A DNA stretch of 64,000 bases from Dehalococcoidia bacterium (GCA_011170375.1 DUEV01000006.1:89255-153254), one strand, 5' to 3'; numbered from the stretch's first letter, positions 9,785 to 53,223 are shown. A program made the numbers and translations. The notes: generated by a model from the letters alone, not told the origin.

Positions 9785-9857
<73 letters not shown>

Positions 9858-9884
9858 GCTTTTGTTTCCTGATGTTCCCGCCTG

Positions 9885-9893
9885 ATTATAGCA
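9885..9893 (-). promoter_or_regulatory. Minus-strand extended -10 box (TGCTATAAT) in the conserved tail downstream of the tRNA
   Basis: Plus strand ATTATAGCA reads TGCTATAAT on the minus strand. The same box sits in front of nrpR and the crotonase gene. Confidence 0.4.
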
Positions 9894-10611
9894 TATCGCT
9901 GGCTGGTTGAACGAGAAGCGAACACAACGGAAGTGATAACCAGGTATCTGTATGTTCAAGATTTTACAGGCTTCTACCGATAACTTGCATCATCGACAGT
10001 CACCCGGAAAAATTCACCGTCTGACTATTTAAATCATTGTCTCTGAGAATAGATGTTTACTTTATACACGGTAAACTCATAAATAATATCATGCAGTAAT
10101 GTTAGAAAAATCGTTTTTCTACTTCGGTGTGATAGCAAGTCGCATAGACCAATAACTTGTTGAGTTGAAGTTTACGTACTACTCATGCTAGACCACGCTC
10201 GGATTCTTGGTAGAATACTTACGGTATGCCGCATAGATCTATTTATCCTTAATCTCTAGTCCTTTCACCTTTCCCTAACAATTAGTCATAATGTGAAATT
10301 TCAAGAAATAGCTAAGTTATCAATCCCTGTCAGGCAGTTAGACTCAAGACTTTTTCGTTTGATTTCAGCATAGGACAATAATCGCTAGCGTTATATTTGA
10401 AATCCTAGCTAGATTATCTCCTCTTTCCAGAATTGGAGACCGTAATCAGTTTTTAAGGCTGCCTTACATCTTTACACCCACCATTTTAAAATGAGGTTTT
10501 GTATTTTAGGGAATTAATTACATCCCTTTTCTCTCGACAGGTAGCGCATTTCTCAGGCCGCCTAAAAGTGCGTTAAAGGCACCAAGATATATTCCGGACT
10601 CTAACGAATGC

Positions 10612-10640
10612 TTGAATATCATTAGGTAGAAGCGTAATAT
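10612..10640 (+). promoter_or_regulatory. Candidate promoter for the AOR gene
   Basis: TTGAAT (10612-10617), 17-nt spacer, TAATAT (10635-10640). The predicted leader contains stem GTCAGTAA (10657-10664) / TTACTGAC (10698-10705) with inner ATTAG/CTAAT. Confidence 0.45.
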
Positions 10641-10728
10641 TACCGTTACAGCTTGTGTCAGTAATTATTAGCTGATTGAGGCAACCCTAATTTACGGTTA
10701 CTGACAAGCAAGACAAGGAGGGTGAATT

Positions 10729-30088: not shown

Positions 30089-31612
30089 GTGTGTGGCATT
30101 GTTGCCATATTCGGTCATAATTCCCAGCTTGGGGTACCACACTTGGATACCATGCTAAATCGGCTATCCCATCGAGGACCGGATGACAGAGGCACCTTTG
30201 CTAATGGACACATTACTTTGGGCCAAACCAGACTTTCCATAGTGGATGTCGCTGGAGGCAGGCAGCCAATATTCTCTGAAGATGGGGAGAAATGTGTTAT
30301 CTGCAACGGCGAGATATATAACCATCTGGACCTGAGAAAAGCGCTTCACCAGGAACACTGTTTTCGAACCAACTCAGACACTGAGGCAATTCTTCACCTC
30401 TTCGAGGAAGAGGGAACTCAATCGGTCTTGAAGCTAGATGGGATGTTTGCTTTCGTAGTTTATGACGGCAAAGATATTCTAGTTGCCAGAGACCCTTTAG
30501 GGATAAAGCCCCTCTATTACAGTCAGGAGAATAGCTGCCTCCTCTTCGCCTCTGAGATTAAGGCGTTGCAGGGAATTGCGGGTAATATTCAGGAATTCCC
30601 CGCCGGTTATTACTACTCCCCCAGCCAAGGACTGACCCAGTACTACCGCCTGCCAGTAATCCCTGAGTGGCAGAGTAATGTCAGTGAAATAAGTCAGAAG
30701 CTACACGATAAGCTGTATGGAGCCGTGGAAAAACGCTGGATGTCTGATGTCCCTGTAGGTTGCTTTCTCAGCGGTGGCCTTGATAGCAGTCTTATCTGTG
30801 CGGTATCAAAACGTAACTTCGACCACCTCGACACGTTCTCCGTTGGTCTGGAGACAGAATCACAGGATTTGATATATGCCAGGAAGGTCGCTCAGTTTCT
30901 GGGTACAAATCACCACGAATATGTCTACACTATGAGTGACGTCCTTGAGGCGCTACCTGATGTTATCTACCACCTGGAGTCCTTTGACCCGGCGCTGGTA
31001 AGAAGCGCTATCCCCTGTTACTTTGTTTCTCGATTGGCCAGAGAGTATGTAAAGGTTATCCTCACTGGGGAAGGGTCGGATGAGGTATTTGCCGGGTATC
31101 ACTACTTTAAGCGGTTTAGTGATAAGCAAGATGTGTACCAAGAGTCTGTCAGGATTCTTACCGGGCTGCACAACATGAACTTACAGAGGGTTGACCGGGC
31201 CACCATGGCCCATTCGATAGAAGGGAGAGTACCCTTTCTTGATATTGGCTTCGTCGAATATGCCATGTCCATCGACCCGAGACTCAAACTAGCAGGGAAG
31301 AGTAAACGGATCGAAAAGTGGCTGCTAAGACAGGCTTTCACCCGTTACCTTCCTGACGAGATAATCTGGAGACCGAAGATGGAGTTTGCCGCTGGCTGTG
31401 GCTCTGAAGAGTTGATAACTGACATGGTTGAGGATGAAATCTCAGATGCTGAATTCGAACGGGAAAGGCAACGGCTACAGGAAATTAACATTTCCTCTAA
31501 AGAAGATCTGTACTATTTTCGGATATTCTATGATTTCTTCGGCTCTGACATTGATGCCACTGCCATCGGCAGATGGAAAGGCGGTTTTTCTAGAGAAGGT
31601 TCAGATTTATAG
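30089..31612 (+). CDS. asnB: Asparagine synthase (glutamine-hydrolysing)
   Basis: 507 aa. (M)CGIVAIFG Ntn-Cys, SGGLDSS PP-loop. Confidence 0.9.
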   Translation: MCGIVAIFGHNSQLGVPHLDTMLNRLSHRGPDDRGTFANGHITLGQTRLSIVDVAGGRQPIFSEDGEKCVICNGEIYNHLDLRKALHQEHCFRTNSDTEAILHLFEEEGTQSVLKLDGMFAFVVYDGKDILVARDPLGIKPLYYSQENSCLLFASEIKALQGIAGNIQEFPAGYYYSPSQGLTQYYRLPVIPEWQSNVSEISQKLHDKLYGAVEKRWMSDVPVGCFLSGGLDSSLICAVSKRNFDHLDTFSVGLETESQDLIYARKVAQFLGTNHHEYVYTMSDVLEALPDVIYHLESFDPALVRSAIPCYFVSRLAREYVKVILTGEGSDEVFAGYHYFKRFSDKQDVYQESVRILTGLHNMNLQRVDRATMAHSIEGRVPFLDIGFVEYAMSIDPRLKLAGKSKRIEKWLLRQAFTRYLPDEIIWRPKMEFAAGCGSEELITDMVEDEISDAEFERERQRLQEINISSKEDLYYFRIFYDFFGSDIDATAIGRWKGGFSREGSDL

Positions 31613-40945: not shown

Positions 40946-40954
40946 TGCTATAAT
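40946..40954 (+). promoter_or_regulatory. Extended -10 promoter box TGCTATAAT upstream of nrpR
   Basis: GCATGCTATAAT at 40943-40954, 38 nt before the TTG start of nrpR. Confidence 0.5.
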
Positions 40955-42279: not shown

Positions 42280-42364
42280 GAGACCTCATAAGCCTTTGGT
42301 CGTGGGTTCGAATCCCCCCGCTGCCACTTTTTATTTCCCCACACTACCACAAAATTATAGCATA
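42280..42364 (+). repeat. Repeat copy C1: 3' 47 nt of tRNA-Met plus conserved tail
   Basis: 42280-42326 matches tRNA positions 27-73 at 44/47. TTATAGCATA at 42355-42364, 28 nt after the tRNA end, the same spacing as in the real gene. Confidence 0.85.
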
Positions 42365-42410
42365 ACACCAGACTTCGAGATAGCCTTCAATAAGATGGGG
42401 TGACTTAGAA

Positions 42411-43319
42411 ATGAGTAGAATTACTTTTGCAACCATGGCAACTCGGAATAACCTCACACGGGCCATCATGCTGTTTGATAGCCTACGAACGTTCGGTGGC
42501 GAACTCGGTGATTCTCTCTGTATCATACTTGTCCCTGAAAAGGGAGAGCCTTTACCCGATAAAGCAAGAGAACAGCTTAGCTTACTGGATGTACGCCTAT
42601 TACCTTTTGATATGGACGAGGGAGCCGTACGGTTCCCGCTCGCTTCAGTAGTTTATGCAGCAGCCAGAGCAGAGCAGCAGGTACACGATGAAACTGAAAT
42701 ATTGGTCTGGACGAATGAGGACACGCTGATAGTCAGCCCACCATCGGACTTTCTACTCGAAGAAGGTATTAATTTTGCCTACAGACCGGTACATCATACC
42801 AAGATTAGCTCAGTCTATGGCAAACCTCCGGATGATTTCTGGTCACTGATATATCAGTACTGCGGCATTGAGGAAGGCAAGGCGTTTCCTATGGAGACCT
42901 GTACCAGGGACAACACAATAAGGGCGCACTTTAATGCCGGACTGCTTGTGGTAAGACCAGAGCAACTTTTACTGGAGAAATGGCTTGACCATTTCAGGGA
43001 GCTATATCAACATCCTGATTTTCGGCCGTTCTTCAAGGAGGACGTTCTTTATATGGTATTCATGCATCAGACGGTGCTATCAGGCGTTGTTCTAAGTATG
43101 TTTAAGAGACGGGAATTACTGGAACTCCCGGAGACCGTTAACTATCCACTCCATCTGCACCAAGAATATCCTATCGAATACCAGCCTCAGGCATTAAATA
43201 ATCTAATAACCTGCCGCTACGAGGGTATCGAAGATTTGCGGAATTCCTTGAAAACAATTCCGGTAGAAGAGCCTTTAAAAGGTTGGTTGAATGAAAGACT
43301 GGGGCCAATGGAGGTTTGA
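42411..43319 (+). CDS. Hypothetical protein (302 aa)
   Basis: Long ORF with AT-rich upstream region. No motif I can name. Confidence 0.45.
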   Translation: MSRITFATMATRNNLTRAIMLFDSLRTFGGELGDSLCIILVPEKGEPLPDKAREQLSLLDVRLLPFDMDEGAVRFPLASVVYAAARAEQQVHDETEILVWTNEDTLIVSPPSDFLLEEGINFAYRPVHHTKISSVYGKPPDDFWSLIYQYCGIEEGKAFPMETCTRDNTIRAHFNAGLLVVRPEQLLLEKWLDHFRELYQHPDFRPFFKEDVLYMVFMHQTVLSGVVLSMFKRRELLELPETVNYPLHLHQEYPIEYQPQALNNLITCRYEGIEDLRNSLKTIPVEEPLKGWLNERLGPMEV

Positions 43320-43326
43320 TAGCTCC

Positions 43327-43341
43327 AATCCCTCCGCTGCC
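43327..43341 (+). repeat. Repeat copy C2: tRNA-Met T-arm/acceptor end only
   Basis: AATCCCTCCGCTGCC is identical to tRNA positions 58-72. It sits in the 33-nt gap between two convergent stop codons. Confidence 0.6.
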
Positions 43342-43352
43342 GCCAGATAATG

Positions 43353-44105
43353 TTAAGCAGAGTCGATTCTCTTCTTGATTCTACTCCACGTGTTTGTAAT
43401 CAGGAAACTCTCCTCCATGTTGTCAACCATGCTGGTGAACTTGCCAATAGGCACCGACAGCGTTATCACATCCGGTGGAACAAAGGGTCTTGCCGAAGGG
43501 TCGAACATGCCAATTATTGCTTTAGGATGCTCTGAGTCCTTTTCAAGGCAGGGATACTGCACAATCGTGGAACAACCAGAGCCAAATGGAGCGGACACTG
43601 CATTTCTATCCACTTCGTCAAATCGGGCTAGGGTGAAGAGTCCTGAAAGAACATCAGGTTTTGCGTAAAAAATTATGACTTCTGGATCATCCGATTCATC
43701 TAACTTGTCCCATCTTTTGAACACTATAAACCGAGATGGTGCCTTAAATGTTGGCGTATTTTTCATTATTTCCTTAACAAGCTCCGGCGATTTGCAGTAA
43801 CGTTCGCCCTCCAGCCTGCCCGGAATCCCGTAAGAAAGGAAGTATTCAAAACCACGCATGATACCCTCTGCAAAGCCAAGATATCTCTTCCCTCCAGGAC
43901 AACCAATCGAATCTGCATCAAAGCACAGAGAATTCCCCTCCCTCACATCTGTTAACGCACCAATCACACACCTCGAAGTAGACCCCGGTTCAACCATCTT
44001 GGCATGCCCTTCCTCATCTGTGTAATAAAAGGTAATTGGCAGTTCGGCACTGCCAAAGTATTTATTCCAGAGTCTGATAAATGTATTCCTGGCATGCATG
44101 TCCAT
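43353..44105 (-). CDS. DUF169-family protein
   Basis: 250 aa. Pattern CVIGAL...GCPGGKRYLGF...FGSGCS resembles DUF169 proteins as I remember them. Confidence 0.6.
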   Translation of the reverse strand: MDMHARNTFIRLWNKYFGSAELPITFYYTDEEGHAKMVEPGSTSRCVIGALTDVREGNSLCFDADSIGCPGGKRYLGFAEGIMRGFEYFLSYGIPGRLEGERYCKSPELVKEIMKNTPTFKAPSRFIVFKRWDKLDESDDPEVIIFYAKPDVLSGLFTLARFDEVDRNAVSAPFGSGCSTIVQYPCLEKDSEHPKAIIGMFDPSARPFVPPDVITLSVPIGKFTSMVDNMEESFLITNTWSRIKKRIDSA

Positions 44106-44190
44106 TGAACTCCTCCGGGATAATGAATAGATGAGTCAATTAAAAAGGGGAAATGGTAAGGCAGCTTCTCGCTTTCTTAACTTATCTGTA

Positions 44191-44249
44191 GTTCGAATCC
44201 CTCCGCTGCCACTTTCTTATTTCCCAAGTACCTGCCTGATTATAGCATA
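44191..44249 (+). repeat. Repeat copy C3: last 21 nt of tRNA-Met plus conserved tail
   Basis: GTTCGAATCCCTCCGCTGCCA (21/21), then TTATAGCATA at 44240-44249 after 28 nt. The tail carries minus-strand TGCTATAAT (44239-44247) facing the DUF169 gene. Confidence 0.85.
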
Positions 44250-44342
44250 ACACCAGATGTGAAACAGGCTTCTAGGCCGAATTCAAAGGTGGATGCCTGC
44301 AGGAAATTATGCAACAGCGTATTACAGGAGTAAAATGACGTC

Positions 44343-45272
44343 ATGAGCTTGACAGGTGACAGGTTTAAAAAAGCCGATATTCATATTCACATCATGGCCA
44401 GCGCGAACGAGGGTGGCTTTATCTCGCGGTCGCTGTTGAGCAAGCCGTGGTCGAAGTACATGTCCTACTGGCTCGGCTTGGAAAGCGACACGGTAGAGGA
44501 ATACATATCACGACTTGTAAGTTACATCAGAGAATCACCGCTTGATATTGGAGTAATCCTTGCCTGTGATGCAATTTATGACGAACATGGTGAGGTCGAC
44601 CCCAGGACTTCTTTCTTTGTCCCCAATGACGTGGTACTTAAAGTAGCTGGCACACATGAGGAGTTACTACCCGGTGTATCAATACACCCAAACCGGAAAG
44701 ACGCGCTGGAGGAAATCGACAGGTGTGTTGAGGCCGGTGCTGCACTTCTTAAATGGCTCCCAAATACACAGGTCATTGACCCATCGGATAAGAAGTATAA
44801 AGCGTTCTACCGTAAACTGAGTGACTACGGTTTGCCGCTACTGAGTCACAGTGGATTCGAATTCACAATGAAAGCAATAAATCAGAGACTGGGAGACCCG
44901 AACAAACTGAGACTCGCACTTGAGGAAGGAACCACAGTCATTTCTGCCCATTGCGGGATTTCTTATGCCGGCCTTTCAACCAGATACCTGAAGACCTGGC
45001 TTTCTCTGCTGAAGGAATACCCCACTCTATACGGTGACCTTGCCGCCCTATCGCTTGGCTTTGGTGGCAGGCTGATCAGGAAATTACTAGAAAACCAGAT
45101 AGCCAGTGAGCGGCTGGTCAACGGTTCGGATTTCCCGGTACCCCCCTTACGAACCGTGATTGACATATTTAGGAGGAGCAATCCTTTCATTAGGGATTAT
45201 CAGATTAAAACCACGCTCGGAGTACCCGACAGTGTATTCTACAGAGGTTACCAGCTAATACGCAGACAGTAG
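44343..45272 (+). CDS. Amidohydrolase-fold metal-dependent hydrolase
   Basis: 309 aa. N-terminal HxH (ADIHIHI) and C-terminal GSDFP typical of TIM-barrel amidohydrolases. Confidence 0.55.
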   Translation: MSLTGDRFKKADIHIHIMASANEGGFISRSLLSKPWSKYMSYWLGLESDTVEEYISRLVSYIRESPLDIGVILACDAIYDEHGEVDPRTSFFVPNDVVLKVAGTHEELLPGVSIHPNRKDALEEIDRCVEAGAALLKWLPNTQVIDPSDKKYKAFYRKLSDYGLPLLSHSGFEFTMKAINQRLGDPNKLRLALEEGTTVISAHCGISYAGLSTRYLKTWLSLLKEYPTLYGDLAALSLGFGGRLIRKLLENQIASERLVNGSDFPVPPLRTVIDIFRRSNPFIRDYQIKTTLGVPDSVFYRGYQLIRRQ

Positions 45273-45324
45273 ACATAGCCCAATACAGCCTACTATTAAA
45301 AGACACGGACGGTTTAGACACGAC

Positions 45325-46944
45325 ATGCGAGTATGTTCGTTTATTAGCAGGATAGGCCGGGCAGCAAAGCTAGATGTCAAACTCTACCAAGAGGTAAAGG
45401 CCGACAGCAAAGCCAGCTGGCAGGCATTCCTTGTCGTTGTATTGGTCAGTCTGGCAATAAGCATTGGTATTGGTATAGCCGGCTGGTTCGCGTTGGCAGG
45501 AGCGTGGTCTATCTGGGGTATACTCGCTGTGCTGGTTAGCTCTGTTATTGTGTGGCTAATCTGGGCGTCCTTTGCCTATTTCGTCGGGACAAGAGTATTT
45601 AGACGCCCGGAGACATCAGCCTCAATGGGTGCGTTGCTACGCACGATTGGCTTCTCCAGTTCCCCCGGGGCGTTGGGCGTCTTAGTATTCATACCTATGG
45701 CAGGGGGTATCATATTGCTCGGTGTATCCGTATGGGCTCTTGCCGCTGGTGTCATAGCTGTCAAGCAATCACTAGCGTTCACCACCCGTCGTGCTATCGC
45801 AACCTGCCTCGTAAGCTGGTCCGCCTGCGTATTGACTGCAGCACTAACCATGATTCCATTATCATCTTATATTATCGATGGAACTTGCACATGCGGTAGC
45901 AGCTTTGATAATCAATTAAACTCGATAGTGAATGCCTACCGTTTCAGCATAGTACGATGGGAGATTGCCTCTATTCCGCATGAGTGGGGTCAGTGGTTCA
46001 GTATCAGCGGTGAGGATATTGATAACGCAGTCGATAAAGTTGTCGATTATTTCTCTCACGAAGGAGAACGAGATAAAGAACTGGGAGACACAGTAGAAAG
46101 GATTTTAGAGAGTCAGATTAAAGAAATCCTGGTTCAACAGGATATCTATGGATTCCCTCCCGTGAACCTTAAGCTGGGTGAATTGCCTCATTTACTTGTA
46201 ATCTCACCCCGAGACAAGATAGAAAGCATGAGAGAAATAATGCTGCTACCCGGCATTAGCCTCGAGGAAATTGAAGATATCGAGGCCAAGGTAGATGAAT
46301 TGGGCGTTTCCTCACTCGTAGTGGGCCTGGGTGGTTTCGGAGGAACATACCCCAGCTTCGTAACAAATAGTGCCAGCCTGAGGGCCACCATTAATACTAC
46401 GGTTGAAGAATGGATACATCAACACCTGGCCTTCAAACCCCTCGGATTCCGATATTTGCTAGATATCCTCGGTATAGCGCGAAATTATGAAGTTGCCACC
46501 ATGAATGAAACCGTGGCCGGTATAGTCAGTAAGGAAATCGGCGCAATTCTTTATGAGACGTATTACCGTGACAAGGAAGAAAGTGTTATCGACCATCCCG
46601 AAGATAATGCAGACGAATCAGGGTTCGATTTCAACCAGGAGATGAGAGAAATACGAATAGCAGTCGATGCCTTTTTGGCCCGGGGAGAGATTGAACTGGC
46701 CGAGCAGTATATGGAACAGAAGCGCGAATATCTGGCCTCACAGGGTTACCATATCAGGAAGTTGAATCAGGCCTATTTTGCCTGGTACGGAACATACGCC
46801 GACGAACCAACCTCAGTCAGCCCGATTGGAACAGAGTTAAGGGAATTAAGAGACAGTAGTGCCTCGTTGAAGGATTTTCTGGATACAGTCGCCCAAATGA
46901 CAAGCAGACAGGAGCTTAAAAGTACTGTCGAATCAATACGATAA
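45325..46944 (+). CDS. Membrane protein: Yip1-like 5-TM N-terminal domain fused to about 350 aa soluble domain of unknown function
   Basis: 539 aa. Hydrophobic segments in residues 30-190 resemble the Yip1 domain layout. The C-terminal part has no motif I recognise. Confidence 0.5.
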   Translation: MRVCSFISRIGRAAKLDVKLYQEVKADSKASWQAFLVVVLVSLAISIGIGIAGWFALAGAWSIWGILAVLVSSVIVWLIWASFAYFVGTRVFRRPETSASMGALLRTIGFSSSPGALGVLVFIPMAGGIILLGVSVWALAAGVIAVKQSLAFTTRRAIATCLVSWSACVLTAALTMIPLSSYIIDGTCTCGSSFDNQLNSIVNAYRFSIVRWEIASIPHEWGQWFSISGEDIDNAVDKVVDYFSHEGERDKELGDTVERILESQIKEILVQQDIYGFPPVNLKLGELPHLLVISPRDKIESMREIMLLPGISLEEIEDIEAKVDELGVSSLVVGLGGFGGTYPSFVTNSASLRATINTTVEEWIHQHLAFKPLGFRYLLDILGIARNYEVATMNETVAGIVSKEIGAILYETYYRDKEESVIDHPEDNADESGFDFNQEMREIRIAVDAFLARGEIELAEQYMEQKREYLASQGYHIRKLNQAYFAWYGTYADEPTSVSPIGTELRELRDSSASLKDFLDTVAQMTSRQELKSTVESIR

Positions 46945-47032
46945 ATGGATTTTGCAGACCCAAAAGTGAAAACCAGTACCTGTTCTATCACAAGATTCGT
47001 ACTGCCAATGCGCGTACATAAATACAGGATAT

Positions 47033-47061
47033 TTGATAGTTAACATATTTAATGTTAGAAT
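47033..47061 (+). promoter_or_regulatory. Candidate promoter with embedded palindrome upstream of cysK
   Basis: TTGATA (47033-47038), 17-nt spacer, TAGAAT (47056-47061). Palindrome TAACAT-attta-ATGTTA at 47041-47057 fills the spacer. Confidence 0.45.
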
Positions 47062-47170
47062 CCTATATATAGTGCCTGGTAAGGTTAATTTCGTATTCAT
47101 GCGCAAATGCTCGATGAAACCGGAATAACCCGATCCAAATAGAAATCTCGGATAGAGCTTTTTAATTCAA

Positions 47171-48070
47171 ATGACAGACATTCAAGATGTATCACATGGT
47201 CTACTGGACCTCATTGGAAACACGCCACTAATCAGAATAGGCAACGTTTACGCCAAATTCGAGGGAATGAATCCCAGTGGTAGCATCAAGGACAGAGTTG
47301 CACTTGAAATAATAGAGGCTGCTGAAAGAGAGGGAAAATTACAGGAAGGTTACACAATAGTAGAAGCCAGCAGCGGAAATACTGGAATCTCTTTAGCCAT
47401 GGTAGCCGCTTTCAAAGGCTACAAGATGCTTGTGGTAATGCCCGAAAACATGAGCGAAGAGAGAAAACAGATGATGCGGGCATATAACGCGGAACTGGTT
47501 CTTACTTCCAAAAGTGGTAGCCTGATGGAAGCTATAGAGACAGCAGAGCAGATTGCCCAGAAACCAAAGACATTTTATGCAAGACAGTTTAGCAATCCCA
47601 ATAACATAAAAGCGCAGGAAAAGACTGGGCAAGAGATTCTCAAAGAAATAGGACCAGTGGATGCTGTTGTAGCTGGTGTTGGTACCGGCGGAACACTAAT
47701 GGGCATTTCAAACGTGATGAAAGAGGCCAATCCAGAAGTACGAGTAATAGCAGTCGAACCGGAAGAGGCTGCGGTGATGTTTGGCGGAAGTGATGTCAGG
47801 ATAAGAGAGCACCAGATACAGGGAATCGGTGACGGATTCATACCTCAGCTGATAGACATGAGTAGCGTTGATGAAGTTTTTACAGTCGATAGTCAGGAAG
47901 CTGTACATACAGCAAGAAGACTCTCGAAAGAATACGGACTATTAGTAGGAATAAGCTCCGGGGCTAACATGCTCATCGCGCAAAGGATATCAAGGGACTA
48001 CGGTAAGGTCGCCACGGTTCTACCGGATAGAGGAGAAAGATATCTGAGCATGAACCTGTTCAAAGAATGA
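47171..48070 (+). CDS. cysK: Cysteine synthase (O-acetylserine sulfhydrylase)
   Basis: 299 aa. NPSGSIKDR PLP-lysine motif, SSGNTG, GVGTGGT. Confidence 0.9.
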   Translation: MTDIQDVSHGLLDLIGNTPLIRIGNVYAKFEGMNPSGSIKDRVALEIIEAAEREGKLQEGYTIVEASSGNTGISLAMVAAFKGYKMLVVMPENMSEERKQMMRAYNAELVLTSKSGSLMEAIETAEQIAQKPKTFYARQFSNPNNIKAQEKTGQEILKEIGPVDAVVAGVGTGGTLMGISNVMKEANPEVRVIAVEPEEAAVMFGGSDVRIREHQIQGIGDGFIPQLIDMSSVDEVFTVDSQEAVHTARRLSKEYGLLVGISSGANMLIAQRISRDYGKVATVLPDRGERYLSMNLFKE

Positions 48071-48075
48071 ATAAA

Positions 48076-48118
48076 GAAAAAGGCTGGCAGGAATTTGGCA
48101 ACCTGCCAGCCTTTGTGT
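48076..48118. terminator. Bidirectional terminator hairpin between convergent cysK and the lipoprotein gene
   Basis: A-run, AGGCTGGCAGG-aatttggcaa-CCTGCCAGCCT, T-rich run. Confidence 0.7.
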
Positions 48119-48158
48119 GCTCTAGACCCCGCAGCCTTACAGGCTACTCAGACCCATC

Positions 48159-48527
48159 TCAGCCCGACTCCGTGACATTGATGCTTAGCCGCTCACTTGA
48201 TTCACTACCGCTCTTATCCGTTACCGTAACGGTAACCAAATACGTACCATAGATATCTGGAGCCGTCCAGGTAACTACGGAACTCGTTCCTGAAATACTG
48301 CCACCGGTTGCCGTCCACTCGTAGGTAAGTCCATTGCCATATCTGGCAGCAGTAATACACTCCACCTGAGTAGACTCGCCTCTTTTTACAGCAGGGAATT
48401 CACTGGTCAGGTCTTCGATGATTGAAGTGTTACCAGCCTGACCGCAGCCAATAACAGCTCCCGAAAAAATGATTAGAATCAAAAAACCAAGAATTACTTT
48501 TTTTATATATACGCCAACTGCTCGCAT
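48159..48527 (-). CDS. Small lipoprotein with PKD/Ig-like domain
   Basis: Preferred start MRAVG at 48527. Signal plus lipobox (IGCGQ). YEWTATGGSISG..VTWTAP..GTYLVTVTVTD is PKD-like. Confidence 0.55.
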   Translation of the reverse strand: MRAVGVYIKKVILGFLILIIFSGAVIGCGQAGNTSIIEDLTSEFPAVKRGESTQVECITAARYGNGLTYEWTATGGSISGTSSVVTWTAPDIYGTYLVTVTVTDKSGSESSERLSINVTESG

Positions 48528-48758
48528 GGGAGCCAATCTCCTAGGAATGCTACGAATTTCCATAGTGCACGCATATCCTAATATTGAATATGGATTAATA
48601 CTTATTCATAGTCAAGCGGTTTTACCAGTACTTTGGTACATATGAGTACTAATGCACTATTGATAGAGGAATCCGACAGGCATAGCATAAGGGTATGCGA
48701 CTCCTTGTCTCCTGCCGAACGTAAATAGAATAATAATGAAGAGGAGGTGAACTCATAG

Positions 48759-48989
48759 GTGAAAAAATTCCTGCAATCTCTTCATCGCGGTAAGAAGGGT
48801 TTCACATTGATTGAGTTACTGGTGGTAATAGGCATCCTCGGTGCGTTAGCAGGCGTTGCTGTGCCCAATGTCGGCAAATTCATGAACTCGGGCAATACTG
48901 AGGCAATGGACACTGAGCTGCACAATGTGGAGCTGGCAATGGCTTCAGGGATGATTGTCAATAACCTGACTTCAGTGTCCGCAAACTGA
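48759..48989 (+). CDS. Prepilin-type N-terminal methylation-motif protein (type IV pilin-like), possibly interrupted
   Basis: KKGFTLIELLVVIGILGAL class III signal. GAGGAGG RBS, GTG start. In-frame TGA at 48987-48989, followed by 44 more in-frame sense codons and a stop at 49122-49124. Confidence 0.75.
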   Translation: MKKFLQSLHRGKKGFTLIELLVVIGILGALAGVAVPNVGKFMNSGNTEAMDTELHNVELAMASGMIVNNLTSVSAN

Positions 48990-49192
48990 GGATGCTGGAC
49001 AAATGACCTGTCAGGAAAGCCTGGTGAGTTTGACCTAGCCGATTACCTGACCCCCGCTACAACCGAATTTTACTACAAGTGGGATACCGACGGCACAATA
49101 TATCAGGACGAAGACGGGTCATGAAGGAGTGGTAGTTTACCACTGAGGATAAAAATACGAAGACAGTCCCCCTCTAAATTCTATTTCCTTAT

Positions 49193-49229
49193 GAAAGCAC
49201 CACCATTTGTATGGCGGTGCTTTCTTTCC
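49193..49229 (+). terminator. Rho-independent terminator after the pilin locus
   Basis: GAAAGCACCaCCA-tttgta-TGGcGGTGCTTTC followed by a T-rich tract. Confidence 0.65.
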
Positions 49230-49243
49230 CGCATTTTTCTAAA

Positions 49244-49302
49244 GGATTCAAATCCCTCCGCTGCTACTTTATTCGCTCACGCTACCACATTTTTATCACA
49301 TA
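49244..49302 (+). repeat. Repeat copy C4: tRNA-Met T-arm/acceptor end plus degenerate tail
   Basis: GGATTCAAATCCCTCCGCTGCTA (20/23 to the tRNA). Tail CTACCACA...TTATCACATA aligns with the C1 tail. Confidence 0.75.
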
Positions 49303-49327
49303 AAACCTGATTTCCAATTGCATCCTG

Positions 49328-50098
49328 TCATTCCCATACCAAGGAATCTGCAAACTCAAGGAGATGCCGATTGAACTCTTCGGGTGAATCCAGGAGGCAC
49401 CTATGCCCGGCTTTGCCCATAACAACTACCTTCGAGTTTTTAATCTTCTCGCGATACAATCGCTCACCCCTTCGAAAAATACGGTCTTTCTCCCCGTTGA
49501 TAATCAGCACTGGCTTTTCGAACGACATTAGGCCAGAGAGGAAGTCCTTTCCACCGATTTCCTTTTCCAGGTCCGACACAGCCTTATGATAGAATCCCGC
49601 TTTAATAACCGGCTCGGCAACCATTGCTCCATACCTTGACCGCCAAAGACGAGCCTCACGTTTAGCCAGCCATCTATGGTCAATAATCCTGTAAAGGAAG
49701 GCCAATAAGTGGTAGGGTATAGAAACAAGTCCCTTCGGGACAGTGCTTGAACTAACGAGCACGAGCCCGTTAACCCTGTCTGGATAGTGATTTACAAACT
49801 CTGAAGCCAGATAACCACCCAAGGAAAACCCAACAACCAGTACCTTATTACAATCTGTCTCTTCGAGGAGGGTCTTTAGTCCTGCCAACGCCCTTTCAAA
49901 CGTAAACATCTCATGGCTTCTGCTACCATGGCTTGGCAGGTCTGGAGCTAGCAGCTGATAGGACGATGACATAGATATCATCTGAGGAGCCCACATCTTC
50001 CTGGTAACAGCTATGCCATGAAGCAGTAGTATGGTCTTTTTATGACCACTACCGGATACATCGTAGTGAGGATATTCTGTAATTTCTTTGAGTCTCAA
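49328..50098 (-). CDS. Alpha/beta-fold hydrolase
   Basis: 256 aa. HGIAVT oxyanion region, GFSLGG nucleophile elbow, C-terminal GH. Confidence 0.8.
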   Translation of the reverse strand: MRLKEITEYPHYDVSGSGHKKTILLLHGIAVTRKMWAPQMISMSSSYQLLAPDLPSHGSRSHEMFTFERALAGLKTLLEETDCNKVLVVGFSLGGYLASEFVNHYPDRVNGLVLVSSSTVPKGLVSIPYHLLAFLYRIIDHRWLAKREARLWRSRYGAMVAEPVIKAGFYHKAVSDLEKEIGGKDFLSGLMSFEKPVLIINGEKDRIFRRGERLYREKIKNSKVVVMGKAGHRCLLDSPEEFNRHLLEFADSLVWE

Positions 50099-50227
50099 TT
50101 TGCTGTGGCACTGGTATTTACAGTGAATAGCGCTCAGGGCTGTTCTGAAATCTCTTCAAGGTAGAGATAGCAGTTACGAATCAGCACGCTTGATTCAGCC
50201 TAGCAGCACCTTGCTCTTTACCTATCG

Positions 50228-50252
50228 GTAGTTCAAATCTCTTAACTACTAC
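50228..50252 (+). repeat. Repeat copy C4b: strongly degenerate tRNA-end copy
   Basis: GTAGTTCAAATCTCTTAACTACTAC versus C3 GTAGTTCGAATCCCTCCGCTGCCAC (about 17/25). Overlaps the stop codon of the crotonase gene. Confidence 0.4.
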
Positions 50253-51040
50253 TCACCTTTGAAGACAGGGTCCCGCTTCTCCGTGAAGGAGCGTACACCC
50301 TCCCGGAAATCTTCCGTCTGGAAGAGTCGACCCTGAGCGAGTACCGAGAACTCCAGGTTAGACTCGTAGTCTGAACTAAGCCCCAGGCGCATTTGCCGCT
50401 TGGCTGTCTGGACAGCCAAGGGGGCATTATTGGCTATCTTTGTTGCCCATTCTCTGGTGGTCTGCTCTAACTCTTCATGAGGGACAACCACATTTACCAA
50501 ACCGATGCGCGCCGCCTCGGTAGCATCCATCCTTTCACCAAGGAACATAATTTCGCAGGCCTTGGCCCAGCCAATCAGCCGCGGCAGCAGCCAGTGGCCT
50601 CCGTTGTCGGGCACCAGCCCCCGCTTAACATGCATGTCTCCTATAACAGCCTTATCCGAGGCTATTCTGATATCGCAGAGCTGGGCCAGCTCAAAACCCC
50701 ATCCTATTGCCGGACCGTTGATGGAAGCAATCGTCGGTTTGTCCAGTGAAAGCATGAGGGTAGAGAGAGAAGGTCCACCGATTCTGATTCTTCTCTCGGT
50801 TCCACCCGAACCTGCTCCCTGACCACTGGCCTGAGCCGCCAGATCAAGCCCGGAGCAGAAACCTCTGCCGGCGCCGGTGATGACTATCACCCTGATATCA
50901 TTATCATCTCTAGCATCCTTAATGCCCGCCATGAGTCCCGATATCATCGAGCTTGTGAAAGCGTTGAGTCTATCAGGCCGATTCAATGTTAGCGTAGCAA
51001 CCGGTCCTTCTTTCGTGTAGATAATGTCCTGCGATTCCAT
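50249..51040 (-). CDS. Enoyl-CoA hydratase/isomerase (crotonase) family protein
   Basis: Crotonase motifs (VIVITGAGRGFCSG, GPAIGWGFELA). Preferred ATG at 51040 (MESQD), 5 nt after GAGGAGG. Confidence 0.85.
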   Translation of the reverse strand: MESQDIIYTKEGPVATLTLNRPDRLNAFTSSMISGLMAGIKDARDDNDIRVIVITGAGRGFCSGLDLAAQASGQGAGSGGTERRIRIGGPSLSTLMLSLDKPTIASINGPAIGWGFELAQLCDIRIASDKAVIGDMHVKRGLVPDNGGHWLLPRLIGWAKACEIMFLGERMDATEAARIGLVNVVVPHEELEQTTREWATKIANNAPLAVQTAKRQMRLGLSSDYESNLEFSVLAQGRLFQTEDFREGVRSFTEKRDPVFKGE

Positions 51041-51098
51041 CGAATTCCTCCTCTGCAACTTTATTAATTATTTCGCCACAACACTTGATTATAGCATG
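51041..51098 (+). repeat. Repeat copy C5: degenerate tRNA end plus conserved tail, doubling as RBS and promoter of the crotonase gene
   Basis: CGAATTCCTCCTCTGCAA versus CGAATCCCTCCGCTGCCA (15/18). TTATAGCATG at 51089-51098. Minus strand reads GCATGCTATAAT ... GAGGAGG ... ATG. Confidence 0.7.
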
Positions 51099-51219
51099 CT
51101 ACTGAAATACCTCACATCTTATCCAAAACAGGGATTGAAAAGCGCAAAAATAGTGAGTATGATAGTGCCACTCCCCAAAAACCGCCAATAGACCGGATAT
51201 TTTGGCAAGGAGGTCATAA

Positions 51220-53094
51220 ATGAAGGATAGCTTCTGGTACAAACTATTAATGCCGTTCCTGGTACTGATGCTGACAGTATCGGTCACGGTATCCTGCAAT
51301 GGTGTAGAGGGACAACAGGAGGAGGAAGAGGAAGAAGAACAGTCAACCGAAATAGTTGACCCGATAATGACAGACGCCGGACTAGTTTCGGGGACGGTGG
51401 TGGGGGACGTTGGAGAAGAGGTACGCGTCTACAAAGGCATACCGTTTGCCGCTCCGCCCGTGGGCGATTTACGGTGGAAGCCACCGCAGCCAGTTGAACC
51501 CTGGGATGGAGTCCTTGATTGCACCGAGTTTGCCCCGATTGCCCCACAAATAACAAGCAGTGAGGTGGAACAAAGCGAGGACTGCCTTTACCTGAACGTA
51601 TATACGCCGGCTACGAATACCACCGACCTTCTGCCTGTATTTGTTAGTATCCATGGTGGCGCGATGGTCATAGGTTCTTCACGCTCGCCGGACATGACAT
51701 ACTTTGCCCAGCAGAACGATGTCGTCGGCGTATCTATCGCCTATCGACTAGGCGGCCTCGGTTTCTTTGCTCACCCCCTGCTTTCTGAGGAATCGGAAAA
51801 TGGGGTTTCCGGTAATTATGGCCTGATGGACCAGGTTGCTGCCCTGGAGTGGGTACAGAATAATATTGCCGCCTTTGGCGGTGACCCGGATAACGTGACT
51901 ATTCAGGGCTGCTCGTCCGGCGGCGAATCGGTTCTTTTCCTGATGGCCTCACCTTTCAGTGAAGGGCTTCTCCATCAGGCCATCGCTGATGCCGGTGTGT
52001 ATGGCTCCAGCCGGACCCCACCTCTTGAAGAAATGGAAACGCGGGGTGAGAACCTTGCAATCGAGCTTGGCGTCGCTGACGAACCCGATGTACTTGCCGC
52101 CCTGCGTGCTCTCGGTGCTGATGAAATCGTGGCGGCTGTCCCCGTCAGTACTTCGGGAACAGAGCTACAGCTTCCGAACGTGGATGGCTGGTTCCTGCCA
52201 GACCTGCCGCTTGAAGTTTTCCAGGCAGGCAATCAACAGAATGTGCCCCTGATGATAGGCAGCGGCAGCGATGACCTTGCCAAAGAATGGAACCAGTATG
52301 GGGACAAGAACTTCGCCTGCGCCATGAGCACGGTCTCATCCGAGGTATATGCCTGGATTTTCGACCATGCACCCTGTGGCAGCGGAGGCGGCACTCATTG
52401 CCTTGACCTGACCTATCTGTTCGCCGATTTAAGTACTCGAGAAGATATGTGTGATGTTGACTTAGAGGTATCTGAAGCAATGGTCGCCATGTGGGTCCAG
52501 TTTGCCAGGACCGGAGACCCTAATGTCGAGGGCCTTATCGAATGGCCAACCTATGAAGAGGCTACTGACCAGTACCTCAAAATCGGAGACCCGGTAGAGG
52601 TAAAAACCGGACTGTACATACCACCTGAAGCCGGGGAAGAGGAGGAGGAAACCCCGGCCGAACCAGCCACCTATACCAATACTGAATACGGGTTCTCTCT
52701 GGAATACCCCGGTGACTGGGTAGAGAAGACGGAAGACCTCGGGCCTGGTGTTGTCTGGCGAGTTGGTACTACGTATACCGTACCTGCAGTAAGAGTTATC
52801 ATCCGCGATGAATCTGAGGGAACTACCCTGGAGGAGGTATTCACCATTCACCTGACGGAGGACGGTGAGAAGACGATTGACACCTTTACAGCGAGCGACG
52901 TCACCATCAACGACACTGATTTTACCCAGGCTGAAGTCACTTATTCCAGCACTGCATATGATTACGAGAGTGTGATTATCGGGCTGGTCACGGACGGCAA
53001 GTGGATTATCATCGAAGTATATACCGTCTCTATATTACCGTTTGACTATGAGGACCAGCAAGCAGAGATTCTCAGTACCGTGACATTCGAGTAG
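51220..53094 (+). CDS. Secreted lipoprotein carboxylesterase (type B) with acidic linkers and an extra C-terminal domain
   Basis: 624 aa. Lipobox VSC; YKGIPFAAPPVGDLRW, EDCLYLNVY and G-C-S-S-G nucleophile elbow. EEEEEEE linkers flank the catalytic domain. The C-terminal 150 aa are unassigned. Confidence 0.85.
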   Translation: MKDSFWYKLLMPFLVLMLTVSVTVSCNGVEGQQEEEEEEEQSTEIVDPIMTDAGLVSGTVVGDVGEEVRVYKGIPFAAPPVGDLRWKPPQPVEPWDGVLDCTEFAPIAPQITSSEVEQSEDCLYLNVYTPATNTTDLLPVFVSIHGGAMVIGSSRSPDMTYFAQQNDVVGVSIAYRLGGLGFFAHPLLSEESENGVSGNYGLMDQVAALEWVQNNIAAFGGDPDNVTIQGCSSGGESVLFLMASPFSEGLLHQAIADAGVYGSSRTPPLEEMETRGENLAIELGVADEPDVLAALRALGADEIVAAVPVSTSGTELQLPNVDGWFLPDLPLEVFQAGNQQNVPLMIGSGSDDLAKEWNQYGDKNFACAMSTVSSEVYAWIFDHAPCGSGGGTHCLDLTYLFADLSTREDMCDVDLEVSEAMVAMWVQFARTGDPNVEGLIEWPTYEEATDQYLKIGDPVEVKTGLYIPPEAGEEEEETPAEPATYTNTEYGFSLEYPGDWVEKTEDLGPGVVWRVGTTYTVPAVRVIIRDESEGTTLEEVFTIHLTEDGEKTIDTFTASDVTINDTDFTQAEVTYSSTAYDYESVIIGLVTDGKWIIIEVYTVSILPFDYEDQQAEILSTVTFE

Positions 53095-53120
53095 CCGTAT
53101 CCAGCTTGGCAGGAACTGAC

Positions 53121-53160
53121 GAAGGGCGTACCCGAAACAAGGTACGCCCTTCAGATTTTC
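53121..53160 (+). terminator. Rho-independent terminator after the esterase gene
   Basis: GAAGGGCGTACC-cgaaacaa-GGTACGCCCTTC then AGATTTTC. Confidence 0.75.
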
Positions 53161-53223
53161 AAATCCTAATCCTAGGTTCCCACTCGCCACTCTCATTTGA
53201 CACCAATCACCCTGTAGGTTAAT

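Follow-up and report, generated by a model that had tools for sequence, protein, structure and literature searches.

The window analysed here is a stretch of 64,000 nt from a Dehalococcoidia bacterium (GCA_011170375.1 DUEV01000006.1:89255-153254), read here as an uncultured Dehalococcoidales bacterium represented by a metagenome-assembled genome (MAG). It carries a tRNA-Met(CAU) gene followed by copies of the 3' end of that gene, all on the strand of the tRNA (+), which separate genes whose presence and order vary between related genomes. We favour, with moderate confidence, the reading that the region from the end of the tRNA gene (9857) to about 53193 is a hypervariable additive tRNA-Met island, built from integrase-less cassettes that resemble cis-mobilizable elements and are moved in trans. 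The original prediction, made from the sequence of the window, had placed integron-like gene cassettes at 42280-51098. The tRNA-derived copies and the units between them proved real, but the island is larger (about 43 kb) and also contains a 32.4-kb segment next to the tRNA gene and a carboxylesterase unit at the far end.

Copies of the tRNA-Met 3' end and variation between relatives

ARAGORN was run across the window and called only one tRNA, the island anchor (Table 1). Its G1-C72 pair indicates an elongator-type tRNA-Met, and it could also be a tRNA-Ile2. Direct comparison confirmed that the last 47 nt of the gene recur as copy C1, and the match counts given earlier for the shorter copies C2, C3, C4 and C6 were reproduced. 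Significance was assessed with an nhmmer profile built from copies of other genomes only, the copies of the window being excluded to avoid circularity, and run over 314 kb (the window plus 16 loci). This profile recovered C1, C3, C4 and C6 (E=2e-9 to 2e-4), C2 (E=0.04) and the tRNA gene itself (E=1e-7). All matches with E<0.1 lay in arrays downstream of tRNA-Met and on the tRNA strand; nowhere else in the 314 kb, and nowhere on the other strand, did a copy appear, which contradicts a generic intergenic element. C5 alone was below significance in this search. The orthologous junction, just past the crotonase stop codon, carries recognisable copies in the relatives L028 and L030 (E=2e-3 to 5e-3; L numbers are our designations), and C5 is thus a decayed copy. 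A collapsed copy proposed at 48668-48690 was without statistical support.

The copies differ in extent. C1 closes the 32.4-kb unit on the right as its direct repeat, and the sequence 3' of C1 is the one that directly follows the tRNA in L006 and L018. C2 is shortened by deletions relative to a 40-nt copy at the equivalent L006 junction. The perfect core of C3 is preceded by a diverged tRNA-like stretch that reaches back to the D-arm.

A search with the HAD hydrolase gene beside the tRNA returned Dehalococcoidales MAGs. The linkage of this gene to the tRNA is kept in L006, L007, L008, L018-L022, L028 and L031. Arrays at the same locus were compared in six further genomes (L006, accession CP070842.1; L018; L021; L022; L028; L031), and partial views were obtained in L008, L019 and L020. 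Five independent assemblies (L001-L005) represent the same strain as the window; their gene order is identical wherever their contigs overlap it, so the island is not an assembly artefact. One of these, the Logan contig L005, begins exactly at C1 (its positions 1-30), either because the assembly broke at the repeat or, possibly, because the population is heterogeneous where the 32-kb unit ends. In the more distant relatives L023-L025 (HAD 56-58% identical) there is no tRNA beside the HAD gene at this place, indicating that the array is limited to a subclade. A metagenome pattern scan gave two matching loci only, one of them L018.

Both flanks are visible in the window, L006, L028 and L031, the first formed by the HAD gene and the tRNA, the second by a radical-SAM/SPASM gene and, after it, a transglutaminase-like gene. 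The distance from flank to flank is 4.7 kb in L006, 14.7 kb in L031, 18 kb in L028 and 43 kb in the window. GC content is 45-51% in the array and 52-57% in the flanks in every genome. Comparison of L006 with the window (blastn) showed that 9896-42284 is missing in L006, where the tRNA is directly followed by the sequence found after C1, that 44250-50249 is replaced by two other units and that 51171-53193 is missing; L006 also has an extra 496 bp and the longer copy, of 40 nt, at the C2 junction. The breakpoints between the two genomes fall at copies.

Counted from the tRNA, the order of units in the window is 32-kb block, 302-aa protein, DUF169, a composite (amidohydrolase, 539-aa protein, cysK, PKD protein, pilin), alpha/beta hydrolase, crotonase and carboxylesterase. 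In L006 it is 302-aa, DUF169, 188-aa, flavodoxin and crotonase; in L018, 302-aa, cysK, 2TM, flavodoxin, DUF169, crotonase and MFS; in L021, flavodoxin, 2TM, 302-aa with HD, 63-aa, OmdA, DUF169 with Fer4, 188-aa and cysK; and in L022, 159-aa, flavodoxin, DUF169, PadR operon, crotonase and MFS. The array of L028 reads 302-aa, PadR operon, 188-aa, cysK, alpha/beta hydrolase, ABC exporter, DUF169, crotonase, 121-aa, pilin, Tricorn-like, carboxylesterase and flavodoxin. Shared unit families were defined by an all-against-all comparison of the array open reading frames (ORFs), and families 0-9 are permuted among the arrays of L006, L018, L021, L022, L028 and L031 at this one locus. Both strands carry array genes, yet all copies point the same way regardless of the strand of their neighbours. 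Presence, absence and order of units thus vary between relatives with breakpoints at the copies, the opposite of what would have refuted the original prediction. The earlier claims that the copies derive from the tRNA and that they delimit units are also upheld.

The conserved core, the search for a recombinase and a promoter-like box

The part common to the copies is short. In 33 non-tRNA copies, the conserved block extends from -18 to +10, counted from the last base of the tRNA, and reads TCGAATCCCTCCGCTGCCA up to that base and CTTTTTATTT beyond it. Its positions are 55-100% conserved, most of them above 70%, and conservation drops to background 5' of T-loop position 54/55. The corresponding 29-bp core of the tRNA gene (TCGAATCCCTCCGCTGCCACTTTTTATTT) consists of the last 19 nt of the tRNA and the flank CTTTTTATTT past its 3' end. 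We infer that this core is the recombination site, and its sharp limits point to a site-specific crossover in the T-loop. The T-loop is the canonical crossover position of integrases that target tRNA and tmRNA genes. The same sublocation was inferred for the ssrA islands of Dehalococcoides (McMurdie et al. 2011, PMC3146451). A few copies reach back to the anticodon loop, namely C1 (47 nt), L006_a (40 nt) and L028-15540. This suggests two crossover sublocations, the anticodon loop for the 47-nt repeat of the 32-kb unit and the T-loop for the repeats of about 20 nt of the small units, and two enzymes may be involved.

The site modules showed no sign of an attC-like hairpin: four modules, folded as DNA on both strands and compared with shuffles, gave z = -0.36 to +1.9, none better than the shuffles. 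Rfam returned nothing significant for them. Xer-dependent modules (pdif/IMEX) are bounded by 28-bp dif-like sites with inverted XerC/XerD arms; the only dyad symmetry noticed in the core here was the partial one of the T-arm.

The core is conserved over long distances. In the distant relative L008, the copy after the 302-aa unit matches the tRNA end at 17/17 positions, while the proteins are 56-64% identical to those of the window (HAD 56%, unit-1 protein 62%); this argues against a neutral scar, which would have decayed. L008 has two different tRNA(CAT) genes 8 kb apart (1995-2069 and 9845-9918), and a copy of the 3' end of the gene itself comes after only one of them, the one adjoining the HAD gene. 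The tRNA-Met of L022 (9810-9883) has a variant T-loop (GATTCC; TTCGATTCC), and the copies beside lineage-specific units of that genome (at 9250 and 7640) share the variant, which points to a concerted change of tRNA and copies or to recent insertions.

A recombinase was sought in the window and in the arrays. No recombinase domain was found in the ORFs of the 64 kb, whose sizeable members have other annotations or none, and no recombinase gene is present in the gene tables of any of the seven arrays; Pfam scans and gene tables thus bear out the earlier statement that the window lacks one. There is no integrase beside the tRNA either, and the 870-bp gap that follows it (9858-10728) contains no ORF longer than 34 aa beginning after the tRNA. 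The 302-aa protein had no Pfam, NCBIfam or PDB sequence match, and the 539-aa protein no Pfam or NCBIfam match. The 302-aa unit was considered as a hidden recombinase and rejected, as it bears no recombinase signature; the only hint was a GT8-like motif that was not significant (E=0.44), and a single-sequence AlphaFold model was unusable (predicted local distance difference test, pLDDT, 39). A phage or viral origin was likewise dismissed, the core with the adjoining motif, a C3-type copy and the plain 22-mer of the tRNA 3' end each giving 0 matches in viral contigs. A gene for an IS110-family transposase lies about 10 kb away on the HAD side of the tRNA in L022 (20282-20792) and in that genome only; it is probably unrelated to the array.

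The original prediction had counted a motif downstream of the tRNA, C1 and C3 as part of the recombination spacer. Its spacing was reproduced: TTATAGCATA starts exactly 28 nt past the tRNA end, C1 and C3 (9886, 42355 and 44240), and 30 nt past C6 (51089). The assignment to the spacer was not upheld, as TTATAGCATA reads TGCTATAAT on the opposite strand, which is a perfect extended -10 box, and the distribution of this box follows gene orientation and not unit boundaries. In the arrays, each run of minus-strand units has a box-bearing module at its right end, and the box is found neither at convergent junctions nor at junctions within minus-strand runs. It stands beside crotonase in all six arrays that have the gene, whatever gene comes next. 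Most modules that have the motif carry the box without a mismatch, and the conserved bases GATTATAGCA fall exactly on it. The motif is therefore probably promoter-like and not needed for recombination. It was also considered as an arm site of a recombinase; this was rejected on the same grounds and because the motif is missing at many junctions. A further box, at 40946-40954, reads in the sense direction of NrpR and lies 38 nt before the start of that gene; about 25 nt further upstream, GGCAGTAGGTGGAATTCGA resembles a reverse-complement att core (about 15/19, one indel), a likeness that may be due to chance.

The PadR cassette has its own TTGACA-N16-TATAAT promoter (L022 7430-7640; L028 18920-19030; L031 15043-15186). 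This promoter is overlapped by a long palindrome, TAGTATCTAGATATATCTAGATACTA, probably the PadR operator. In L022, the core and the PadR promoter are separated by an extra piece of about 95 nt that contains a TGCTATAAT box as well as a terminator-like hairpin.

The reading favoured here can be put as a sequence of steps. Units as small as one ORF (0.45-1 kb) and as large as the 32-kb metabolic block would enter by site-specific recombination at the 29-bp site. Each insertion would rebuild the tRNA, and beyond the insert a further copy of the site would remain; copies would therefore accumulate in one orientation. Units could later be lost, or re-inserted at any copy, which would shuffle their order. 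The recombinase would be encoded outside the island and act in trans, which would make the units comparable to cis-mobilizable elements or to cassettes without an integrase. In many site modules, TGCTATAAT forms a strong extended -10 box 25-31 nt past the core and facing it, and it may drive transcription of the tightly packed minus-strand cassettes that leave no room for a promoter of their own (crotonase, flavodoxin).

Alternative explanations and related systems

Several observations weigh against this reading. No recombinase was found in the window or the arrays. A number of junctions have decayed or undetectable copies, within the 5-kb composite unit and distal to crotonase in L028 and L031, and the right end of the carboxylesterase indel has no clear copy, only a doubtful remnant (about 53150-53185). 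Cassette proteins are 85-92% identical between genomes, roughly tracking core genes, so that most units are old residents, and rare events, not an active system, could account for the differences. The 32.4-kb unit may be a rearrangement through the repeats, its genes being ordinary chromosomal genes elsewhere. The TGCTATAAT box always precedes the plus-strand 302-aa gene too, so that it might also act in the other direction. Recent horizontal transfer of cassettes was considered separately and dropped, since the identity matrix gave no clear signal and the cassettes roughly track the core genes.

It is unlikely, in our judgement, that the copies are only inert attR remnants of tandem islands or prophages that targeted tRNA-Met and lost their integrases and nearly all of their cargo, with nothing moving today. 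There is good published precedent for tandem accretion that leaves partial tRNA repeats (PMC4898812; Hackl et al., bioRxiv 10.1101/2020.12.28.424599), and the decayed copies C5 and C2, the eroded junctions of the 5-kb unit and the rough agreement of cassette with core divergence would suit such remnants. But the units are repeatedly exact single ORFs between two cores, which independent deletions would not leave, and shared units occur in different orders. Neither an integrase gene in the seven arrays nor an ORF fragment above 34 aa in the gap after the tRNA remains; the cores are perfect across lineages whose proteins are about 60% identical, and the L022 copies next to lineage-specific units share the variant of their tRNA. 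The original prediction had opposed tandem att scars to a cassette array; these are not true alternatives, and the data fit repeated insertion of small integrase-less units. The shared L022 variant would also be expected from gene conversion with the tRNA, and thus from an exchange driven by homology, in which the 30-90-bp modules act as short anchors for RecA crossing-over, gene conversion or replacement after DNA uptake and no dedicated recombinase is required. The lack of a recombinase gene nearby is in line with this, as is the fact that modules in many cases stay similar for about 40 nt beyond the tRNA end and across the TGCTATAAT box. Against it, what all copies have in common amounts to no more than about 29 bp and stops sharply in the T-loop on its 5' side, and many junctions share nothing past the core. 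About 29 bp is short for efficient RecA recombination. We regard this route as quite improbable.

The units of about 1 kb with a single gene and the array of co-oriented sites recall a true integron or a cluster of attC sites lacking an integrase (CALIN), in which cassettes depend on IntI and attC sites merely resemble a tRNA end. This is refuted by the lack of intI in the window and arrays, by modules that fold no better than shuffles, by genes on both strands, some of them in units with their own promoter, and by sites that are plainly the 3' end of the adjacent tRNA. The description as integron-like thus holds only as an analogy and fails for IntI, attC-type hairpins, a single coding strand and promoterless cassettes. 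A dispersed tRNA-derived repeat of intergenic regions in general (a miniature inverted-repeat transposable element, a repetitive extragenic palindrome, an element like short interspersed nuclear elements, or an RNA-processing signal) would likewise be short, intergenic and tRNA-derived. It is contradicted by the confinement of the copies to the arrays and to one strand, by an orientation that is constant whatever the strand of the neighbour and by the lack of an Rfam family, and we consider it most improbable. Going beyond the favoured reading, the locus might be a dedicated and still active cassette platform, an integron analogue with a site made from the tRNA end, 29-bp double-strand cores, a recombinase encoded elsewhere and a resident, outward-facing extended -10 promoter that expresses promoterless single-gene cassettes, long kept by selection across the Dehalococcoidales clade. 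We put this forward tentatively, as possible but rather doubtful.

The locus is of a known general kind, a tRNA-anchored additive island with units like cis-mobilizable elements (CIMEs), and is unusually fine-grained and integrase-free. It lies 3' of a tRNA between conserved flanks, has tRNA repeats at its boundaries, varies in content and deviates in GC; an integrase, usual but not obligatory in tRNA islands, is absent from the window ORFs and the array gene tables. The additive flexible islands of Alteromonas, with hotspots directly 3' of tRNA and tmRNA genes, tRNA-Met included, have variable cassettes between conserved flanks, and phylogeny does not predict how many cassettes are shared or in what order (Lopez-Perez et al. 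2016, PMC4898812). The hotspot, the variable cassettes, the conserved flanks and this decoupling from phylogeny are alike here, whereas many of our units consist of one ORF of 0.45-1 kb, a site copy is kept at nearly every junction, seven arrays contain no integrase or mobility gene, the host is an anaerobic member of the Chloroflexota and a promoter-like box accompanies many sites. The ssrA islands described by McMurdie et al. (2011, PMC3146451) have a 20-bp direct repeat of the 3' end with extra conserved bases flanking it; 16 carry a six-gene module including the serine recombinase DsiB, and 15 are without an integration module and have been proposed as cis-mobilizable elements. They come from the same bacterial class, with tandem islands past a tRNA-like gene and an inferred insertion in the T-loop, but target ssrA, are multi-gene and are defined by a DsiB/DsiA serine recombinase module, whereas the units here adjoin tRNA-Met, are far smaller and come with no serine recombinase.

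According to Pavlovic et al. 2004, as cited in PMC3146451, and to the review PMC5704250, CIMEs are flanked by att sites, have no recombination or transfer genes and would move with, or through, an integrase that a related element supplies. The units here are likewise flanked by att-like sites and encode no recombination or transfer genes; known CIMEs, in contrast, adjoin an integrative and conjugative or integrative and mobilizable element (ICE/IME) that supplies the integrase, and no such partner was seen here, the scans of viral contigs for the att site giving 0 matches. The tycheposons of Prochlorococcus encode their own tyrosine or large serine recombinase and often replication genes (Hackl et al., bioRxiv 10.1101/2020.12.28.424599). 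They share with the island the tRNA anchor, stacked integrations with partial tRNAs, metabolic cargo including nitrogen-assimilation clusters and scattered remnants, but there is no recombinase here and the units are much smaller. With integrons and CALINs the island has in common single-gene cassettes of about 1 kb, co-oriented sites, tight packing of ORFs and possibly a resident promoter; it differs in having double-strand-type tRNA cores without an attC hairpin, no IntI, and cassettes that are not all promoterless and in one orientation (crotonase and flavodoxin are promoterless, PadR has its own promoter). Literature searches found no description of arrays of single-gene integrase-less units with tRNA-derived sites, nor of arrays of 5-10 single-gene CIMEs.

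Dehalococcoidia have small genomes and abound in anoxic sediments; apart from the ssrA islands of Dehalococcoides mccartyi, little is known, to our knowledge, of how they exchange genes. The island shows that single metabolic genes can be treated as discrete, reorderable modules at a tRNA without a local integrase, for example cysK, crotonase, flavodoxin, hydrolases, transporters and the 32-kb nitrogen-assimilation block. If the sites are active, they would represent a second, independently evolved route to an integron-like cassette array and offer a defined 29-bp site for finding the recombinase. If they are inactive, the locus is still a clear record of an additive island assembled unit by unit.

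Units of the island

The features of the window island are listed in Table 1.

Table 1. Coordinates of the tRNA-Met island in the window, from the anchor to the last variable unit.
Feature	Position	Strand	Basis
tRNA-Met(CAU) gene, island anchor	9785-9857	+	ARAGORN; sole tRNA in window
29-bp conserved core in tRNA gene (from T-loop position 55 through the 3' end, with a T-rich flank of about 10 nt)	9839-9867	+	
32.4-kb unit between tRNA and C1	9858-42279	+	bounded by 47-nt repeat
TGCTATAAT box after tRNA	9885-9893	-	sequence
C1, 47-nt copy, anticodon stem to 3' end	42280-42326	+	44/47; nhmmer E=2.4e-9
TGCTATAAT box after C1	42354-42362	-	sequence
Unit 1, 302-aa protein, function unassigned	42411-43319	+	
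C2, 17-nt core copy	43326-43342	+	15/17 (15/15 over 43327-43341); nhmmer E=0.04
Unit 2, DUF169 gene	43353-44105	-	Pfam; present in all seven arrays
C3, with perfect 21-nt core (44191-44211, 21/21)	44152-44211	+	nhmmer E=1.7e-8
Composite 5-kb unit	44212-49243	+	Pfam, gene table
TGCTATAAT box after C3, upstream of DUF169	44239-44247	-	sequence
Amidohydrolase, in composite unit	44343-45272		Pfam
539-aa membrane protein, in composite unit	45325-46944		
cysK, in composite unit	47171-48070		Pfam
PKD protein, in composite unit	48159-48563	-	Pfam
Type IV pilin-like gene, in composite unit	48759-48989		
C4, core copy	49244-49266	+	20/23; nhmmer E=1.3e-5
Alpha/beta hydrolase unit	49328-50098	-	Pfam; unit also in L028/L031
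C5, decayed core copy, overlaps crotonase stop codon	50228-50252	+	about 17/25 by eye
Enoyl-CoA hydratase (crotonase) unit, 263 aa	50249-51040	-	Pfam; ORF fills space between two cores
C6, core copy	51041-51058	+	15/18; nhmmer E=2.4e-4
TGCTATAAT box 30 nt past C6, placed to drive crotonase	51088-51096	-	
Last variable unit, carboxylesterase (gene 51220-53094)	51171-53193	+	Pfam; blastn

The 32.4-kb unit has a GC content of 48.9%, compared with about 55% in the flanks, and is not present at this site in any relative (blastn against L006; other arrays). Its first gene after the tRNA encodes an aldehyde:ferredoxin oxidoreductase (AFOR). Pfam and the gene tables further identify a short-chain dehydrogenase/reductase (SDR), a Liv-type ABC transporter, corrinoid/MtaA-like genes, a PurF-like gene, split GOGAT parts, a response regulator, AsnB, Amt, PII, GlnA, NadE, CarAB and NrpR. 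The nitrogen part (regulator, Amt, PII, GlnA, NadE, CarAB and NrpR) is an ordinary chromosomal block in L026 and L027, without a tRNA fragment after it. The idea of a foreign island was therefore upheld in part only, since other Dehalococcoidia have the nitrogen genes as a conserved block of the chromosome; the unit may represent cargo that was taken up and mobilised via the att site, or the product of a repeat-mediated rearrangement. AsnB (30089-31612) is an extra insertion relative to L026.

The 302-aa gene is the first unit after the tRNA in L006, L008, L018, L020, L028 and L031. A counterpart of the DUF169 gene (78% identical) adjoins tyrS in L034 (8714-10726), in an ordinary chromosomal context of more distant organisms, so that this cassette gene has a non-mobile counterpart elsewhere. 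The 5.05-kb stretch that follows had been taken as one unit. In L018, cysK is a single-gene cassette between two perfect cores and at another position than in the window, and the stretch is thus a fusion of cassettes; the PKD protein and the pilin are found at other positions in L022 and L028. The composite probably consists of several fused cassettes with eroded sites. Upstream of cysK (46990-47030), GATTCGTACTGCCA resembles the core with an internal deletion, just before the start of the homology to the L018 cysK cassette at 47028.

The crotonase unit is packed tightly between its sites. Its stop codon (50249-50252) abuts or overlaps C5, and its ATG and GGAGGA ribosome-binding site lie inside C6, where the complement of the TCCTCC of the tRNA is the Shine-Dalgarno sequence of the gene. 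The tRNA fragment has thus been co-opted as the translation start region of crotonase. In the arrays of relatives, the ATG of flavodoxin is about 20 nt from a core.

The carboxylesterase is not present in L006 and stands elsewhere in the L028 array. Past its terminator hairpin (53150-53185), TTCAAATCCTAATCC is possibly a decayed core at the right end of the unit, without statistical support.

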